This document shows, in pieces, positions 49,435-55,849 of a stretch of 64,000 bases of DNA. Under the pieces are notes generated by a model, which was given only the letters and a program-made list of their open reading frames with translations, did not search any database and was not told the DNA's origin. The first letter of the stretch is position 1. Each line of letters opens with the position of its first letter. The DNA comes from Smithella sp. (lineage in GTDB: Bacteria > Desulfobacterota > Syntrophia > Syntrophales > Smithellaceae): the NCBI GenBank assembly GCA_035382085.1, contig DAOSZO010000001.1:4488-68487 (forward strand). Direction: 5' to 3'. A program made the translations under genes and the position numbers.

Positions 49435-49611
49435 TTACTGCGACTGCTGATCTTTTTTTACTGCCTCTTCAATTTCATTGTCTTTGATGGACATGTCACG
49501 GGAGTAATCCGGGCAGCGGACACATCCCTGCGAATCCGTCACCACGCTAAAACGCTTCTGGCAATTGACCCGCCAAGCACAAATCGCACAATATTTTTTT
49601 TCTGAACTCAT
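49435..49611 (-). CDS. 58-aa Cys-rich protein (not in ORF track)
   Basis: Hand translation gives MSSEKKYCAICAWRVNCQKRFSVVTDSQGCVRCPDYSRDMSIKDNEIEEAVKKDQQSQ*. RBS AAGGA is 8 nt upstream. There is a consensus-like promoter upstream and a terminator downstream. Confidence 0.6.
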   Translation of the reverse strand: MSSEKKYCAICAWRVNCQKRFSVVTDSQGCVRCPDYSRDMSIKDNEIEEAVKKDQQSQ

Positions 49612-49701: not shown

Positions 49702-50382
49702 CTACTGAATTCTCATATCGCGCCAGTAAATGAGATTTTTGTCCCCCATGCCTCCGGACAGGAAGGGATCCGTTATCCTCAAGGTATGACTTTTGTCGTT
49801 TAATTCTTCGGAAAAAGGCATATAAATGTCCTTTTTCTTCGTGTCAGGATTATCGGAAATCGACACAGTAGTGGACATTCCCTCCTCATGCTCTTTATAG
49901 CGCGAGCCATCTGTGTATGCGCCTTCTCCGGTAAGAATATTTAAGATATACAACCTTGACTTTCCGGCTTTATTGCACGAATCCGTTCCTGACGCTGGAA
50001 TATATGACGTCATGAATATTTTTTTATCCGCGACCTTCGCATCGCCTAGAACCTTTTCTCCTAGCGTTTCATTTAAGCTGATATACCATCCATGACCGTC
50101 CGCTGTGTCAGCATATGTCGAATTGGTTATGTCTTTTAAATCCGAAAGCGTGTATTTCTTCTCTCTGTCGGTGTCTTTGACCACAAAAATTCTGTCAACT
50201 CCAGTTTTAGAAAGAGGCTTTGTCTTGTCGCCCGTTCCCCAGATCACCAAAAGATTGTAATTGCCATCCAACGTTACAGCCGGTGCCGTGTAAATATTGC
50301 CGGCACCAAAAGCCGCCGGGGCAAAGCTTGTAATAACAATAATGCACAAAAAGGACATCCAACCTTTCTTGATGGCTTTCAT
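49702..50382 (-). CDS. PilY1-like protein, C-terminal beta-propeller portion, with its own signal peptide
   Basis: MKAIKKGWMSFLCIIVITSFAPAAFG signal. Then IYTAPAVTL...LVIWGTGDK, GWYISLNETLGEKVLG and SRLYILNILTGEG match the PilY1 C-terminal pattern. An alternative ATG at 50400 overlaps the upstream stop (TAATG). Confidence 0.7.
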   Translation of the reverse strand: MKAIKKGWMSFLCIIVITSFAPAAFGAGNIYTAPAVTLDGNYNLLVIWGTGDKTKPLSKTGVDRIFVVKDTDREKKYTLSDLKDITNSTYADTADGHGWYISLNETLGEKVLGDAKVADKKIFMTSYIPASGTDSCNKAGKSRLYILNILTGEGAYTDGSRYKEHEEGMSTTVSISDNPDTKKKDIYMPFSEELNDKSHTLRITDPFLSGGMGDKNLIYWRDMRIQ

Positions 50383-50399
50383 TTTACAATCTTCCTCCA

Positions 50400-53024
50400 T
50401 TATTGATTGCTAAATAATTTGCCATAGGACCAACTTCCCTCATCACAGGACGTGCCATCGCTTTGCATGCAGAATTTAAAGCGCCACAAATTGCCGCCGG
50501 TGTCTCCAATATAGGCTGTATCTATAAAACCATCTCGGTCGTAATCAACCACTGTCGGCGTCGCGGCCAGATCGTATTTTATATCTCCGGCGAAGGTTTT
50601 GAGTATCGAGCCATCTTGTAAATTAACGACAAAAAAACCTTTGCCTTGTTTATTACAGGTTCCAGCGCTTGAGCAATTTGCTCCGGAATAGCCGCCGCCC
50701 ATAAACCCCACCCATTTTTCCAATCCCTTAATGCTGACTCTTCCCATGACCATTTTGCTCCAAGCCTGACCCAGGTAGGAAGCGGCATCAGCTGGAATAG
50801 CCGAACTTCCGCCGAGTTTCCACTTAAATACCGGCGGTGTGCTTAAAGTATTCGAGACATCAAAGGCATAATAACCGCAATAATGCCCGTATTCGGCGCT
50901 GTAGGAAGGACTAAAATCTGAAGAGCAGTAAGCTGATTTGCTCCAGAGCGTGTTAATGCCTCCCCTCCCCTCTGAAATGATCAAATAGGTTCTCCAGTCG
51001 TTTTCATCTTTGGCTTCCTGATTGCTTCCCAGCCAGATTTCGGCGGCACTGATAGGACCATCGACAAAATATTCGTGCGAAAGGTTTGTCGGATGTGTGC
51101 TGTGGGCAACATTGATAAGCCGCGGCAATAAATTGGGTGGAATGAAACTCCAGAGTTCTGTACCTCCTCCCGATGATCCATCGCCTGCTTTAAAGGCATG
51201 GAGTTGACCATCATTGGCACCGACCAGAATAATTCTGGTACCGTCCTTGGATGTCCGCGGATGACTTTTCATGAATTTGTAAAATCCCTTGTTTTCCAAG
51301 GATTGCTTATCGATGACATCAACGAAATTTTTATTAGGCGTTGCGATCGACATCGGCGATGAATGAAAGATGTCACCCAGTTTCCAGCGGTAATTAAGGT
51401 GGCTGCTATCCAGCTCCCCGTTATGTATGAAATTCACAACCGATGCGCACTCAACGGAGCAAGACGAACTGTCAGAAATATTCAAAATATTATCCGTCAT
51501 GTTGCCGGCATTGAATTCGATAAGATTTGAGGATTGTTTTAGAGTATAGACGTTTCTTGCAGTTGATCTGCTTTTCAGGATCTCGCCGGCGTCCCAATCA
51601 GCTTTTGTGTAGATATCTCCGTAAGTTTCGGGACCGCCGCAGAGAGGATTTTGAGAACTGCAAATGGTATAGCGTTTAAGGTGGCCGATCCAAAACGGAT
51701 CATTTGGAATTTGTTCAAATGACGCCTCGTAAACATAATTTTCATCAAAAAGCCTGACGGCCTGAATTGATGATTGTGTAAAGGCGTACGTATAGCCGGT
51801 GATGGTATTTATGGCTTCTTTTAAGGCCATTTCCAACTGATCGGCGTCTTCAGCAATAAAAGCATAACCGGAAAGCGGCAAATAGCCCGGATCATAATTC
51901 GTCGCCTTGAATTTTGCAGTATCCGCGGATGTTCCACCCGCGAAACATGCAGCGGTTTGCGTTGATGTGTCAGACACGCACTTTGAAAATCCGGAAGGAT
52001 ATGTAGCTGTCCCATCAAGGGCATAGGCAGCAGTAGAACCTGAATTCAGTGCTTTAGGATTATCGGAATTACCGTGGAACGCCGCCCATTCGAGCGTGTT
52101 TTTAAGGTAATCGGTCATCCCGGCACCAAAACCGATGATAAATGTTTTGTACCCGGCATTGGCTAATTCTTTTGCCGCCGCCACAACTTCGCGGCGTCGA
52201 ATATACATGTTCGCCTGACATTCTGTTCCATCTCCGCTGCAGGCAAAAGTATCGGCTCCGTCAGTGACGGCAATGACAAATTTTGCTCTGCAGGCTTTTG
52301 CGGGATCTGCGGCTTTATGGTCGTCCAGATATTTTTTTGCTTCCCGCAAGGCCGACGCCAACGGCGTCCCTCCCGTCGCTGTTTCGCCAACAATACATTC
52401 TCCGGTCGTACATTTTGTGACCGTGGAGGCGCAACTTGTGGAGTTGCCGCAATAGGTCAGGGAATAAGAGGTTCCTGTTTCTTTGCCAAGCTCACTGATT
52501 TTCGTGACCAATTTGATCGCGCCTTTTGTATAGTCGCCTCCCGTGTCATTGCCCAATTTGCCGTCTTTGATGTCCTTGAAGCGCATGAAACCGATGCGAA
52601 TATTCATTTTGTCAGAGTCTGAATTATTGATGATATTGTTTCCGTCGCTGTCCAGGATGTTAAAAAGCGCTCTTTTGGCGATAGCCAGTCTGCTGCAATT
52701 GACCGTGCAGTTTGTTTTTGATGCTTCGCAAAACCCCTTAGAACAACTCGTTCCCCATACAGAGGCGCATTTTACAGTGTCGGCTTTGCAAGAAGTTGAA
52801 CTGCCATAGGGATAACTATCATCTCCCAAGGGATTGGAATTCATGCTGCCCGAAAGATCCAGAAGAATCAGCGCATCCGGGGTGACGCTCTCAAACAATC
52901 CCTGTTCGTCTCCCGCAGGTTCCAATTCATCTTCTTCGCCCTCCGCCCATGCCACATTGTTGACCATCAAGAAAAAAATGAGTATCACCAGGAGAAAAAT
53001 GGTTCTAATTTTATTTTGAAACAT
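50400..53024 (-). CDS. pilY1: PilY1-like tip adhesin, N-terminal portion (signal peptide, vWA/MIDAS domain, Cys-rich region, start of PilY1 propeller)
   Basis: ATG at 53024 lies 6 nt after AAGGAGGA. Signal LLVILIFFLMVNNVAWA. MIDAS LLDLSGSMN plus VTDGADT. PilY1 signatures RIILVGANDGQLHAF, VDYDRDGFIDTAYIGDTGGNLWRF. Confidence 0.75.
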   Translation of the reverse strand: MFQNKIRTIFLLVILIFFLMVNNVAWAEGEEDELEPAGDEQGLFESVTPDALILLDLSGSMNSNPLGDDSYPYGSSTSCKADTVKCASVWGTSCSKGFCEASKTNCTVNCSRLAIAKRALFNILDSDGNNIINNSDSDKMNIRIGFMRFKDIKDGKLGNDTGGDYTKGAIKLVTKISELGKETGTSYSLTYCGNSTSCASTVTKCTTGECIVGETATGGTPLASALREAKKYLDDHKAADPAKACRAKFVIAVTDGADTFACSGDGTECQANMYIRRREVVAAAKELANAGYKTFIIGFGAGMTDYLKNTLEWAAFHGNSDNPKALNSGSTAAYALDGTATYPSGFSKCVSDTSTQTAACFAGGTSADTAKFKATNYDPGYLPLSGYAFIAEDADQLEMALKEAINTITGYTYAFTQSSIQAVRLFDENYVYEASFEQIPNDPFWIGHLKRYTICSSQNPLCGGPETYGDIYTKADWDAGEILKSRSTARNVYTLKQSSNLIEFNAGNMTDNILNISDSSSCSVECASVVNFIHNGELDSSHLNYRWKLGDIFHSSPMSIATPNKNFVDVIDKQSLENKGFYKFMKSHPRTSKDGTRIILVGANDGQLHAFKAGDGSSGGGTELWSFIPPNLLPRLINVAHSTHPTNLSHEYFVDGPISAAEIWLGSNQEAKDENDWRTYLIISEGRGGINTLWSKSAYCSSDFSPSYSAEYGHYCGYYAFDVSNTLSTPPVFKWKLGGSSAIPADAASYLGQAWSKMVMGRVSIKGLEKWVGFMGGGYSGANCSSAGTCNKQGKGFFVVNLQDGSILKTFAGDIKYDLAATPTVVDYDRDGFIDTAYIGDTGGNLWRFKFCMQSDGTSCDEGSWSYGKLFSNQ

Positions 53025-53050
53025 CTTGATTCCTCCTTGATGCATTTAGT

Positions 53051-53527
53051 TTACAATTCCCCCTGCTGTGTGTCAGCCTGCGTAGGCGGAGGCGCCATGC
53101 CGATGGAAATTTTTGTTTCCGAATTATAAGCGGTGTCTCTTCCGGTAATCAAAGCTTCATAAACCATAGACGCAGAGTTAAGACTTTCATACGGAAAGAC
53201 GACTTGTCTTTCCGTATTGAAAACCTGTGCCAGATAGGCAAGCGTCGGGTCATTTACGGGATCTACTTGAATGGGTTTATTGGTATTGAGCGCATAGGGA
53301 TTCCCCAAGTCTATCGAGGCAAAGACGGCATGCGCGCCGGCTTCGGCGGCTGAAAAAGCCTTACGTTCGGCGACCATCCGGGAACTGATCATCAAATCTT
53401 CTGAAATCATAGTCAGAGCAAAAAAACCGATCGCGGTCAGCACAACAACCGCCATCAATGCCACAATAAAGACAAACCCACCTTCCGACTTTTGCTTTTT
53501 TTGGATTAAATCAAGGACATAACACAT
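53051..53527 (-). CDS. pilX: PilX-like minor pilin/pilus assembly protein (PilX_N type)
   Basis: N-terminal GGFVFIVALMAVVVLTAIGFFAL hydrophobic segment without Glu5. Its position between pilW and pilY1 is as in fimU-pilVWXY1 operons. Confidence 0.6.
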   Translation of the reverse strand: MCYVLDLIQKKQKSEGGFVFIVALMAVVVLTAIGFFALTMISEDLMISSRMVAERKAFSAAEAGAHAVFASIDLGNPYALNTNKPIQVDPVNDPTLAYLAQVFNTERQVVFPYESLNSASMVYEALITGRDTAYNSETKISIGMAPPPTQADTQQGEL

Positions 53528-54206
53528 GATTTTTCACCAACACGTCTGTTGTATATGTCATTCGTCTCACCTTCTGTGTCATGCTGTCTGGGTTTTTCGT
53601 GTCTGCGACAATATTGATGCGAACGCGGCGAATGCTGGGGATTAAAGCTGCCGGCACGTCGCCCGATGCGTCAGCGAGATTGTTACCGTCGCGGTCGAAA
53701 TATTGAAACAAAGGAAGTTTTGCGCTTGCATTCCTGACATTCGTTTCCGTGTCGGTTCCGCCGAGCATCGGCTGGAAATTACCGCAACTCACGCTTCTTC
53801 TGATCGTGTCGTTCTCATATCTATAGACGATGTATTCATTATCCGATGCGCTATTGGCAATAGATTTGGAATTGTCCAAATCCATTGCTATGGCGATTTC
53901 ATTGGCCGCGGCTTTTTGAATGCCCTTATGGTCTGGCGTCAGCGTGATTTCTTTGCAGTTTCCGTCCTTTGCCATTGTCCATGTGGCCTTGGTCATGCCG
54001 GGATTATAAGATGCCATTCGAATCTCCATCGTCATAATATCAAGAACGGTTCTCGCGTCCTGTTGCGTGACAACTTTTCGCCCCACACTGGCTGAAGATT
54101 TCTGCGCGGCATTCATGGCGGCATAGATGACCGTGATGATCAAAGCGCCGACACCCAGTGCGATCACCAATTCCACCAAAGTAAACCCGTTTCTTTTTAA
54201 AGCCAT
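53511..54206 (-). CDS. pilW: PilW-like type IV minor pilin
   Basis: Prepilin motif KRNGFTLVELVIALGVGALI from the ATG at 54206. The track's extension to 54368 overlaps pilV. Confidence 0.65.
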   Translation of the reverse strand: MALKRNGFTLVELVIALGVGALIITVIYAAMNAAQKSSASVGRKVVTQQDARTVLDIMTMEIRMASYNPGMTKATWTMAKDGNCKEITLTPDHKGIQKAAANEIAIAMDLDNSKSIANSASDNEYIVYRYENDTIRRSVSCGNFQPMLGGTDTETNVRNASAKLPLFQYFDRDGNNLADASGDVPAALIPSIRRVRINIVADTKNPDSMTQKVRRMTYTTDVLVKNHVLCP

Positions 54207-54208
54207 CT

Positions 54209-54625
54209 TCAGAATTTCTCCTGTCGAGAAACTATCATGCTGCTTCCAACGCCTTTTTTGCTTCCCGGCCACGTTACTTTCACATTCAAAAGCGTCGTGT
54301 TTTGCGGAAGAGTGGCGGGATTGCTCGCTGCAATAAAAATGGAATAAACCGCCGACGGGTCCTTGCAATCCACGCTGTTTCCGTCATTGTCCAAACAGCT
54401 TTTTGAGTCGGATGGAACATTTCCTGTCATAATCAGGTATTCGTTTGTTTCCATCTCCCGCTGCAGAATTGCCGCCGCGCGGCCCAAATAATCGGCTTTG
54501 CCAGCTCCCTGCCATGCAAGAGGCTGCATGTTGATTAGGGTAAAGATGGCGATGGTGGTCAGAAACAGAGCAATAATACATTCCATGATTGTCAGTCCCG
54601 CTTCTTTATTTGAGCTTCTCTTCAC
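54209..54625 (-). CDS. pilV: PilV-like type IV minor pilin
   Basis: Prepilin-type N-terminus KEAGLTIMECIIALFLTTIAIF (G, then Glu at +5). 138 aa. Confidence 0.6.
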   Translation of the reverse strand: MKRSSNKEAGLTIMECIIALFLTTIAIFTLINMQPLAWQGAGKADYLGRAAAILQREMETNEYLIMTGNVPSDSKSCLDNDGNSVDCKDPSAVYSIFIAASNPATLPQNTTLLNVKVTWPGSKKGVGSSMIVSRQEKF

Positions 54626-55055
54626 TTCTGATCCTCCCGGTTTGACCGCAAATAATGCGGATTTCCGAACCCCGGTCGTTCTGTAATACGATGGTCCCCA
54701 TTGAAGAGGTGCCCCTGGGCTGGAAGTTAATCGTGTTGCCGGAAAAATTATGCTGTTTGATTTTTATTCCTTCGCCGTACTGGTTTAAAAATTTTGGGGA
54801 GCCGTTCTGAAGGGTGTAGGAATCCTCATTATTGATCGTAATGGTATAGGCCACGCCTTCTGACATGGCTTTTTGCTTGGCCAATTTTATATCCGACATC
54901 AAAGCGCCCGCCGCTTCCTTCAGATTTCTGTTTCTGGCGAAAGATGAAAACATGGAGTTGGCAACCACCAGCAAAATTGCGATGACGCTCAAAACAATCA
55001 AAATTTCAATAAGAGTAAATCCTTTTTCGTTTGTTCTGCCGGATAATTCAAACAT
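54606..55055 (-). CDS. FimT/FimU (GspH-domain)-like type IV minor pilin
   Basis: Prepilin motif EKGFTLIEILIVLSVIAIL from the ATG at 55055, followed by a GspH-like beta domain. Confidence 0.65.
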   Translation of the reverse strand: MFELSGRTNEKGFTLIEILIVLSVIAILLVVANSMFSSFARNRNLKEAAGALMSDIKLAKQKAMSEGVAYTITINNEDSYTLQNGSPKFLNQYGEGIKIKQHNFSGNTINFQPRGTSSMGTIVLQNDRGSEIRIICGQTGRIRSEEKLK

Positions 55056-55057
55056 TG

Positions 55058-55819
55058 CTAGTAACTCATTAGAAAAATTTTCGTGACGCCATCGCCCCAA
55101 AAGATATAAGCGATAGCCGCCGCTGACAAAAAAGGTCCAAAAGGCACGGCGTATCTCATGTTCTGTTTTTTAATTAAAATTGTCGTCAAACCGACAATCG
55201 CTCCTAAAAGCGAACTGCACAGCAATACAAACAACAACGATTTCCACCCGAAAAACGCGCCTATCATAGCCAAAAGCTTTATGTCGCCGCCGCCCATTCC
55301 CTCTCGCTTGGCGATTAACTCATATAAGACGGCTATCGTAAAAAGAACGCCACCGCCGATCAGCAGGCCAAGCAGCGCCTCCAACCAGTGGATGCGGCAT
55401 ATGAAAACGGCTGCCAAAAAGAACAAAGGTATCCCGGGAAGCGTGATGACATCGGGTATAATTTGATGATCCAAATCAATAAACGTGACAACTAAAAGCG
55501 CTGATACGAACAAAAAATGTGCTAGGAACTTTAAAGTAAAGCCGAATTTTATAAAAAGCATGACGGCCAATACTGCCGTCAGCAATTCAACAACCGAATA
55601 GCGCCAAGAGATTTTTGCGCCGCAATCCCTGCATTTTCCCTTGAGCCACAAATAACTGACAATCGGCAAATTATCGTAAAGACGAAGGGGATGTTGACAG
55701 GCAGGACATCTGGACCCGGGACTGATAATGGAAACTTTCAAAGGGATTCTGTAGATGCAAACATTGAGAAAACTGCCGATTGCCGCTCCGAACACAAAAG
55801 CAAAACTTTCCACAATCAT
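55058..55819 (-). CDS. pilD: Prepilin peptidase / N-methyltransferase (A24 family)
   Basis: FLNVCIYRIP, zinc-binding CPACQH...CRDCG, and active-site regions FIDLDHQIIPD and GMGGGDIKLLAMIG. ATG at 55819 follows GGAGAA. Confidence 0.9.
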   Translation of the reverse strand: MIVESFAFVFGAAIGSFLNVCIYRIPLKVSIISPGSRCPACQHPLRLYDNLPIVSYLWLKGKCRDCGAKISWRYSVVELLTAVLAVMLFIKFGFTLKFLAHFLFVSALLVVTFIDLDHQIIPDVITLPGIPLFFLAAVFICRIHWLEALLGLLIGGGVLFTIAVLYELIAKREGMGGGDIKLLAMIGAFFGWKSLLFVLLCSSLLGAIVGLTTILIKKQNMRYAVPFGPFLSAAAIAYIFWGDGVTKIFLMSY

Positions 55820-55849
55820 GAAAAATTCTCCATCCGTCTTCATTAAAAT

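Follow-up and report, generated by a model that had tools for sequence, protein, structure and literature searches.

A conserved division of PilY1 into two genes, with a second predicted signal peptide inside the propeller-coding region, in Smithella and related lineages

PilY1/PilC proteins have a central part in the assembly of pili, in adhesion and in the sensing of surfaces, and at the pilus tip they take the whole force of retraction. In a 64-kb stretch of DNA from a Smithella sp. metagenome-assembled genome (MAG), hereafter the window, to which all coordinates refer, the gene for such a protein lies at the end of a pilin gene cluster, every feature of which is on the minus strand, and is divided between two open reading frames (ORFs), designated ORF1 and ORF2 (Table 1). 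The pair is annotated at NCBI as HON57951.1 (874 aa, "PilC/PilY family type IV pilus protein") and HON57950.1 (226 aa, "hypothetical protein"). ORF1 terminates with DTGGNLWRFKFCMQSDGTSCDEGSWSYGKLFSNQ (longer stretch, WRFKFCMQSDGTSCDEGSWSYGKLFSNQ), and its stop codon overlaps an ATG at 50400-50398 (TAATG); a second ATG at 50382, 10 nt downstream of a GGAGGA sequence, opens the 226-aa ORF2, which starts with MKAIKKGWMSFLCIIVITSFAPAAFG/AGNIYTAPAVTL (here and below, a slash marks the predicted or candidate cleavage point), contains the blocks VIWGTGDK, GWYISLNETLGEKVLG and SRLYILNILTGEG and ends at 49702. The 874-aa frame with its quoted end, the TAATG overlap, the GGAGGA upstream of the second ATG and the C-terminal blocks of the 226-aa product had all been described in a first-pass annotation of the window, and all are readable in the sequence; that annotation had, however, opened ORF2 at the stop-overlapping ATG, which is present, whereas the start common to ORF2 homologues is the second one. 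Independent NCBI, JGI, ENA and Logan assemblies contain this pair of ORFs as well, and the TAA is therefore not an assembly accident.

ORF1 (or 881 aa in a longer reading from a start at 53045) represents the N-terminal part of PilY1. It matches Pfam family PF05567 (T4P_PilY1) with an E value of 4.5e-17 and 62.5 bits (cut-off, 28.1), although the match spans no more than profile positions 184-282 of 411, and it aligns with residues 33-282 of the 570-residue construct of the PilY1 C-terminal domain structure 3HX6, the alignment ending just past a calcium-binding motif of the form Dx[DN]xDGxxD, as defined in PMC13190605. Homologues of ORF1 with at least 62% identity are 870-907 aa long and have the same end point; those with 58% identity or less, from Smithella, Smithellaceae and Syntrophaceae, are 1000-1150 aa long.

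The absent C-terminal part of the propeller is found in ORF2. Taken together, ORF1 and ORF2 are collinear from end to end with eight fused homologues, and the sole extra block, between ...LFSNQ and GNIYT, is about 27-33 residues in length and corresponds to the stop, the ribosome-binding site and the leader, in keeping with the earlier estimate of about 30 intercalated codons; at this site, the fused proteins have a linker of 8-10 residues, typically SSSGxIRP. When a profile built from the ORF2 family was run against 1.84 billion representative proteins, it hit the final ~200 aa of PilY1 proteins of 1000-1300 aa, with E values down to 1e-45; these matches begin at profile position ~26-29, immediately past the leader, and the long proteins matched carry PF05567. 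It is because of the collinearity with fused PilY1 and the profile matches to their C termini that ORF2 is assigned as the missing portion, and ORF1 does stop, as had been proposed, where full-length PilY1 proteins continue. Conservation in the ORF2 family, and likewise in the fused homologues, is highest in the peptide NLIYWRDMRIQ, which is located at the C-terminal end of both.

The two-gene layout is present in at least nine lineages, with ORF2 identities of 31 to 82%. Stand-alone ORF2 homologues of 201-238 aa were found at 55-82% identity, and a deeper profile search yielded others of 213-252 aa at 31-41% identity, each with its own N-terminal leader. In every split lineage with genomic context (the window, L086/L087, L001-L003, L004, L084/L085, L088, L089, L090 and the P0137 locus), the gene for the C-part follows directly downstream of one for a truncated N-part, and both belong to one operon. 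ORF1 ends across relatives with ...LF(N/S)(N/K)(Q/H/N), or with ...LLNNN in L084/L085, and the junction spacers, 13-89 nt in length, carry GGAGG or AAGGAG and then an ATG, with several in-frame stops between the two genes. Relative to ORF1, ORF2 is read in frame 0 in some lineages and in frame 2 in others, and no slippery site is conserved. Diverged relatives thus share the stop, the Shine-Dalgarno sequence, the ATG and the leader, and independent assemblies agree, which bears out the contention that the break is not a simple nonsense mutation and speaks against an assembly error. Among GTDB species representatives, the signal-peptide type of split was present in none of the 79 distinct loci kept, the best ORF2 match having 42% identity.

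Broken PilY1 genes of another kind were encountered during the survey. Six of the loci from GTDB Syntrophales MAGs (L008, L034, L083, L010, L039 and L056) contain plain frameshifts with overlapping frames and neither a ribosome-binding site nor a leader; several come from long-read "MFD" bins, and they are probably assembly errors or pseudogenes, distinct from the Smithella split. In L001-L003 (JGI contigs Ga0192804, Ga0192806 and Ga0193550), argS, ffh and the PilY1 N-part of L002 are called as several fragments, which suggests that these assemblies are error prone; the PilY1 junctions read, those of L001 and L003, are nonetheless the same, leader included.

Purifying selection acts on both parts of the gene about as strongly as on a housekeeping gene. 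Ratios of nonsynonymous to synonymous substitution rates (dN/dS), calculated by the Nei-Gojobori method between the window and L086 (protein identity, 87% for ORF1 and 82% for ORF2), were 0.10 for the whole of ORF1, 0.12 for the whole of ORF2 and 0.084 for the neighboring argS, and the strongest constraint measured was on the propeller part of ORF1, at 0.053; the pseudogenization that the first-pass annotation had named as a reason for doubt is not borne out. Signal peptides typically evolve faster than the mature part of a protein, and the ORF2 leader does so, with a dN/dS of 0.30 compared to 0.10 for mature ORF2.

The leader was evaluated by a heuristic scan, in which hydrophobicity was taken as the mean Kyte-Doolittle value over 10 residues and cleavage sites were located by the -3/-1 rule, and the scan was extended to 13 split homologues. 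All 13 have the layout of a Sec-type signal peptide, with 1-4 basic residues first and then a hydrophobic core with a mean Kyte-Doolittle value of 2.4-3.6, and in 12 of them a small-x-small motif (AFG/A, GLG/A, VFA/A, AFA/V, VWA/V or VLA/A) is situated at residues 23-28, directly before the first conserved mature residues. The lone exception, P0004, reads ...SGHTA/EN and has no small-x-small motif at that position. In P0016, the one fused homologue scanned, the corresponding loop has no hydrophobic segment. We infer from this layout that the ORF2 leader is a Sec-type signal peptide cleaved by signal peptidase I, with export and cleavage predicted and a predicted mature protein beginning with AGNIYTAPAVTLDGNYNLLVIWGTGDK; the "textbook" signal peptide claimed for the region after the second ATG, with its basic n-region, hydrophobic h-region and small-x-small motif, was recovered by the same scan.

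Other origins and types of leader were considered and set aside. A class III (prepilin) leader could be drawn in the window as MKAIKKG/WMSFL, but it is unlikely because Gly7 of the window protein is not conserved in homologues. No lipobox indicative of a lipoprotein signal was found in the ORF2 family, and local alignment of the ORF2 leader with the ORF1 signal peptide, from which it might have been copied, was not significant (p 0.06-0.48).

A structural model of an artificial single-chain fusion of ORF1 and mature ORF2 was generated with AlphaFold2 from an alignment of 58 fused homologues. It reached a mean predicted local distance difference test score (pLDDT) of 85.4 and a predicted template modeling score (pTM) of 0.78, and its top Foldseek match was 3HX6 (E 3.7e-19; template modeling score, 0.67 on the target). 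Residues ~50-317 of ORF1 form alternating strands and helices with a pLDDT of about 90, as in a vWA-like domain. The calcium motif occupies model residues 827-835 and is followed by strands at 836-840, 846-850 and 866-871, and the junction, 874/875, falls between this last strand and the one at 883-886, in a region with a pLDDT of 87-97. The ORF2 portion contributes about eleven strands, the first at 883-886, 892-897, 912-918 and 946-950; its residues 875-1056 have pLDDT values mostly of 80-96, and the last 18 residues (1057-1074), which include NLIYWRDMRIQ, are disordered in this monomeric fusion model (pLDDT below 50). Because the calcium site of Pseudomonas aeruginosa PilY1 lies in blade IV of seven (PMC11891296), the strand order of the model would place the cut at the boundary between blades IV and V, with ORF2 supplying blades V-VII.

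The cysteine content of the two products is of interest in this context. Cys136 of the 226-aa product is the only cysteine of mature ORF2, and the corresponding column is occupied by cysteine in 93-97% of fused homologues; in the window, L086, L001, L004 and L088, the cysteines of mature ORF1 number 25, which is odd. An odd count in one chain and a lone cysteine in the other are as expected if one disulfide joins both, and an inter-chain disulfide through Cys136 is put forward as a candidate, a hypothesis drawn from residue counts and conservation. Two PilY1 homologues of 1022 and 1062 aa (P0033 and P0051) have 45-49 cysteines compared to 16-33 in the other 57 sequences of the alignment, and the cysteine aligned with Cys136 is absent from them; this oddity may reflect an alignment problem or a cysteine-rich insertion.

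The history of the split was examined with neighbor-joining trees of the N-part, of ArgRS as a species proxy and, with bootstrap support, of the C-part. Many fused PilY1 genes occupy the same argS-linked locus, which makes the locus orthologous and a single chain the usual form. Split genes of the window clade form a monophyletic group (100%); at deeper levels, split and fused forms are interspersed, and the deep nodes of the C-part tree have bootstrap values below 50. The split P0132/L090 and the fused L023, 81% identical over the C-part, group together with a bootstrap value of 100%, and the DNAs of L090 and L023 are ~88% identical on both sides of a single indel of ~120 nt, which comprises exactly the stop, the spacer and the leader; from this one clean indel, it follows that both forms are viable. 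The leaders of P0129, P0131, P0132, P0144 and P0154, which we call group B, are clearly homologous to one another (z scores of 3-16, most of them at least 7), and the P0132 leader scores 8-15 against those of P0131, P0144, P0154 and P0129, whereas unrelated leader pairs score at most 6.6; as comparisons of ORF1 leaders with ORF2 leaders reach that value, z scores below about 7 are unreadable as homology. Because the P0132 leader has these homologues, the simplest reading of the sequences is that L023 was re-fused by deletion from a split ancestor. The z scores demonstrated no homology between the leaders of the window clade and those of group B, and, with deep bootstrap values below 50, the split lineages may go back to a single fission or to more than one. 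The fused PilY1 of L023 (5001-5681 and upstream) is encoded by a 1375-aa open frame, with an N-terminal part about 300 aa longer than that of the window protein.

We consider it probable that a functional PilY1 is produced in these bacteria from two translationally linked cistrons, the chains of which are exported separately and assembled in trans, and we infer leader cleavage, the disulfide and docking to a minor pilin as further steps of this process. An ancestral gene for a single chain would have been interrupted at the short loop that joins blades IV and V of the propeller, so that chain A (ORF1, about 847 aa when mature) would carry the vWA-like adhesion domain, blades I-IV and the calcium site, and chain B (ORF2, about 200 aa when mature) would carry blades V-VII and the conserved C-terminal peptide. 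A Sec-type signal peptide on each chain would direct its separate export, and once in the periplasm both would fold jointly into a single closed propeller, which a disulfide through the cysteine of chain B might hold together. With its C-terminal peptide, chain B would then add a beta-strand to the PilX/PilK-like pilin, and the complex would be mounted on the pilus tip and assembly licensed. Such a step has been reported for single-chain systems, in which a beta-strand is added to a PilK-family minor pilin (PilX in Pseudomonas) by the final ~10-12 residues of PilC/PilY1, which are necessary and partly sufficient for pilus initiation and, through strand addition, explain the retention of the adhesin on the tip under load (Ellison et al., PMC13533445). 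As the terminal peptide is on the small chain and the vWA-like domain and calcium site are on the large one, the force path from adhesin to pilus would, by analogy, cross the interface of the two chains.

A number of observations weigh against assembly in trans or qualify it. All of the sources are metagenome assemblies of uncultured bacteria, and the assignment of ORF2 comes from its homology to fused relatives; on its own, ORF2 gave no Pfam, NCBIfam or PDB sequence match in profile searches (best, FGF13, E 0.5). A permuted pseudo-complex, in which ORF2 was placed before ORF1 and AlphaFold2 was given a shallow unpaired alignment, reached a pLDDT of only 43.7 and a pTM of 0.36 and supports nothing. 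The total cysteine count of L084 is odd, and presence/absence covariation in sets of 59 and 168 sequences gave no signal for a partner of Cys136. The choice between cleavage of the leader and an uncleaved membrane anchor is made on the -3/-1 rule.

There is a small chance that the chains do not re-assemble at all, with ORF2 acting as a minimal PilY1 that primes pili by its C-terminal strand and ORF1 being a separate secreted or periplasmic adhesin, or dispensable. The location of the strand-donating peptide on ORF2 is in accord with such a division of labor, but in the fusion model blades I-IV and V-VII are open parts of one closed fold and would be unlikely to be stable alone. Moreover, the propeller part of ORF1, which could be dispensed with under this explanation, is the most constrained region measured, the two genes are always adjacent and are conserved together, and the genes can be rejoined at precisely the point of the split, in keeping with a shared fold. 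A different fate for chain B, with its hydrophobic N terminus left uncleaved as an inner-membrane anchor, in the manner of a prepilin, until the tip complex is loaded, also seems improbable to us. The hydrophobic core of 13-15 residues and the location of the gene in a pilin operon with a prepilin peptidase would suit an anchor; the placement of the small-x-small motif before the conserved mature residues in 12 of 13 leaders would not, nor would the lack of a conserved glycine at -1 or of any prepilin-type motif, Gly7 being absent from homologues, or the fast evolution of the leader relative to the mature protein, which is as in cleaved signal peptides.

We regard it as very improbable that the split is a pseudogenizing lesion or a sequencing or assembly error. 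Plain frameshifts in PilY1 do exist in other Syntrophales MAGs, and a survey of Myxococcota took adjacent PilY1 fragments as annotation errors (PMC13190605), but those frameshifts have overlapping frames and no leader, whereas the split recurs in independent assemblies and in lineages down to 31% ORF2 identity, with a ribosome-binding site and a signal peptide in all and strong purifying selection on both parts. Production of a single-chain PilY1 by programmed frameshifting or stop codon read-through, which the TAATG overlap of the window might suggest (it could equally suggest coupling), is excluded as the route of expression, with scarcely any probability left to it, by the varying frame of ORF2 and the in-frame stops in the 13-89-nt spacers of relatives that have no conserved slippery site, and a read-through product would bury a hydrophobic signal peptide in an inter-blade loop.

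If two separately exported chains do assemble in trans, a further reading of the data can be offered, although we hold it to be a long shot: chain B would license pilus assembly and hold the tip, chain A would provide adhesion and a calcium switch, and the adhesin would be optional or act as a mechanical fuse, with switching between the split and fused states under selection. Should chain B be able to prime pili alone, with chain A held by the propeller interface with or without the disulfide, pili could be made with or without the adhesin; alternatively, under the same condition, the adhesin half could detach under tension and so act as an inbuilt mechanical fuse. Selection on that property would then lie behind the repeated switches of Smithellaceae alleles between split and fused.

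Conserved and kept by selection, the arrangement suggests that the propeller tolerates a break where blades IV and V are predicted to meet, and that an internal position of an exported protein can accommodate a Sec signal peptide, gained or lost cleanly as a block of ~120 nt. It also offers a ready design for splitting the PilY1 of model organisms, by which the licensing and anchoring functions of the C-part could be studied apart from the adhesion and sensing functions of the N-part. For annotation, it counsels caution: the 226-aa gene is labeled a hypothetical protein, and PilY1 genes in fragments are commonly written off as errors (PMC13190605).

The genes around the pair include core minor pilins of the FimU-PilVWX type, in one cluster with it (Table 1). 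The order, which is the same in relatives, is pilD, a GspH-like gene, the ORF in the PilV position, an N_methyl (PilW-like) gene, a PilX_N-type gene, ORF1 and ORF2; the product of the PilX_N-type gene, which directly precedes ORF1, is, by homology with the system described in PMC13533445, the expected partner of the beta-strand at the C terminus of PilY1. Downstream of the C-part, in split loci with genomic context, are an ORF of 56-58 aa, argS, a SPOR-domain gene and ffh. The small ORF in the window (49435-49611, minus strand; 58 aa, cysteine rich, MSSEKKYCAICAWRVNCQKRFSVVTDSQGCVRCPDY...), between the PilY1 C-part and argS, has no Pfam match and may be a small zinc-binding protein. It was matched by tblastn downstream of PilY1 in 30 fetched loci (27 distinct) at 62-95% identity over 37-58 aligned residues and occurs beside split and fused PilY1 alike, with argS also found in most such loci. 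No second PilY1 copy is present in the 64-kb window. Elsewhere, tandem or close pairs were seen in L009 and L013 (same contig, JAGPKU010000040.1) and in L010 and L008, each of which has a second PilY1-like ORF of ~1080 aa directly downstream; two PilY1 genes in some Syntrophales indicate that PilY1 paralogy is common in the order.

Table 1. Features of the divided PilY1 gene and of the adjoining pilin cluster in the Smithella sp. window
Feature	Position	Strand	Basis and remarks
PilY1 N-part, ORF1, 874 aa (MFQNK...), stop included	50400..53024	-	Signal peptide, vWA-like domain, predicted blades I-IV
Predicted ORF1 signal peptide, MFQNKIRTIFLLVILIFFLMVNNVAWA/EGE	52944..53024	-	Heuristic scan: hydrophobicity maximum 3.75 over 10 residues, 2 K/R in n-region, AWA/E at residue 27
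vWA-like alpha/beta domain of ORF1, approximate limits	52065..52892	-	Weak Pfam VWA match, E 0.0095
Calcium-binding motif DYDRDGFID	50520..50546	-	Read in sequence; aligns with 3HX6 motif region
Junction: TAA 50402-50400, GGAGGA 50398-50393, conserved ATG 50382-50380	50380..50402	-	Read in sequence
ORF2 signal-peptide-like leader, MKAIKKGWMSFLCIIVITSFAPAAFG	50305..50382	-	3 K/R in n-region, hydrophobicity 2.81, AFG/AG at residue 26
Mature PilY1 C-part, ORF2, 200 aa and stop	49702..50304	-	Last ~11 propeller strands (predicted blades V-VII), C-terminal tail
Cys136 of the 226-aa product, only Cys of mature ORF2	49975..49977	-	Invariant in split family
C-terminal peptide KNLIYWRDMRIQ, candidate beta-strand for PilX/PilK-like pilin	49705..49740	-	Putative role, after PMC13533445
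PilX/PilK-like minor pilin	53051..53527	-	Pfam PilX_N, E 1.3e-4, 22.3 bits; just under cut-off of 25.5
PilW-like minor pilin	53511..54203	-	Pfam N_methyl 3e-6; L001-L004 orthologues match PF27121 PpdB
Small pilin-like ORF, PilV position	54209..54625	-	No Pfam match; position only, synteny with L001-L004
GspH/FimU-like minor pilin	54606..55100	-	Pfam N_methyl 1e-8, GspH 7e-7
pilD, prepilin peptidase, first cluster gene	55058..55843	-	Pfam A24_N_bact 4e-36, Peptidase_A24 1e-24; position kept in related loci

To our knowledge, every described member of the PilY1/PilC family is a single chain, and full-text literature searches returned no published account of a PilY1 split within the propeller or of one with a second signal peptide, in line with the first-pass suspicion that the arrangement had not been described. 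The canonical proteins (P. aeruginosa PilY1, 3HX6, and the 1000-1150-aa proteins of other Smithellaceae and Syntrophales at the argS-linked locus) share with the Smithella pair PF05567, a place in the operon behind the minor pilins, an N-terminal signal peptide, a vWA-like domain, the calcium motif, a 3HX6-like propeller and the C-terminal peptide. They differ in that the Smithella gene is cut after blade IV, as far as the model places it, with a loop of 8-10 residues replaced by a stop codon, a ribosome-binding site, a start codon and another Sec-type signal peptide; given the cut and the second signal peptide, the propeller would have to be built from two exported chains. Because it consists of two cistrons, while all described members are one continuous polypeptide, we class it as a PilY1 variant, and, judged from comparative sequence data, it is a new architecture of a known family, one that has been conserved, that selection maintains and that can change into the fused form and back.

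The closest parallel in principle is Sec13, an open six-bladed propeller that is closed by one blade from a partner, Nup145C, Sec31 or Sec16 (PMC2922654), so that there too a closed propeller is made from two polypeptides. The resemblance goes no further than that: Sec13 systems are eukaryotic, cytosolic WD40 proteins that receive one donated blade from an unrelated helical protein, whereas the Smithella propeller is bacterial, exported, non-WD40 and of an unrelated family and would be divided about 4+3 by fission of one gene, with a signal peptide for each part.

PilY1 has also been seen as two neighboring coding sequences in Myxococcota, at LILAB_RS06745/06750 of Myxococcus macrosporus HW-1 and SCE_RS10345/10350 of Sorangium cellulosum So ce56; the 2026 survey that reported these adjacent fragments, in which the propeller and DUF4114 are separated, considered them to be annotation errors, and a second signal peptide, conservation and selection are not reported for them (PMC13190605). 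The Smithella split, unlike those fragments, interrupts the propeller itself, has been conserved from lineage to lineage and comes with a signal peptide. Finally, the donor of the terminal strand is known to vary among type IV filaments, with PilC/PilY1 acting in trans and GspK/XcpX and CpaL acting in cis (PMC13533445). The strand donors described so far are thus a complete adhesin or the pilin itself, whereas in Smithella the donor would be a partial-propeller chain of ~200 aa.

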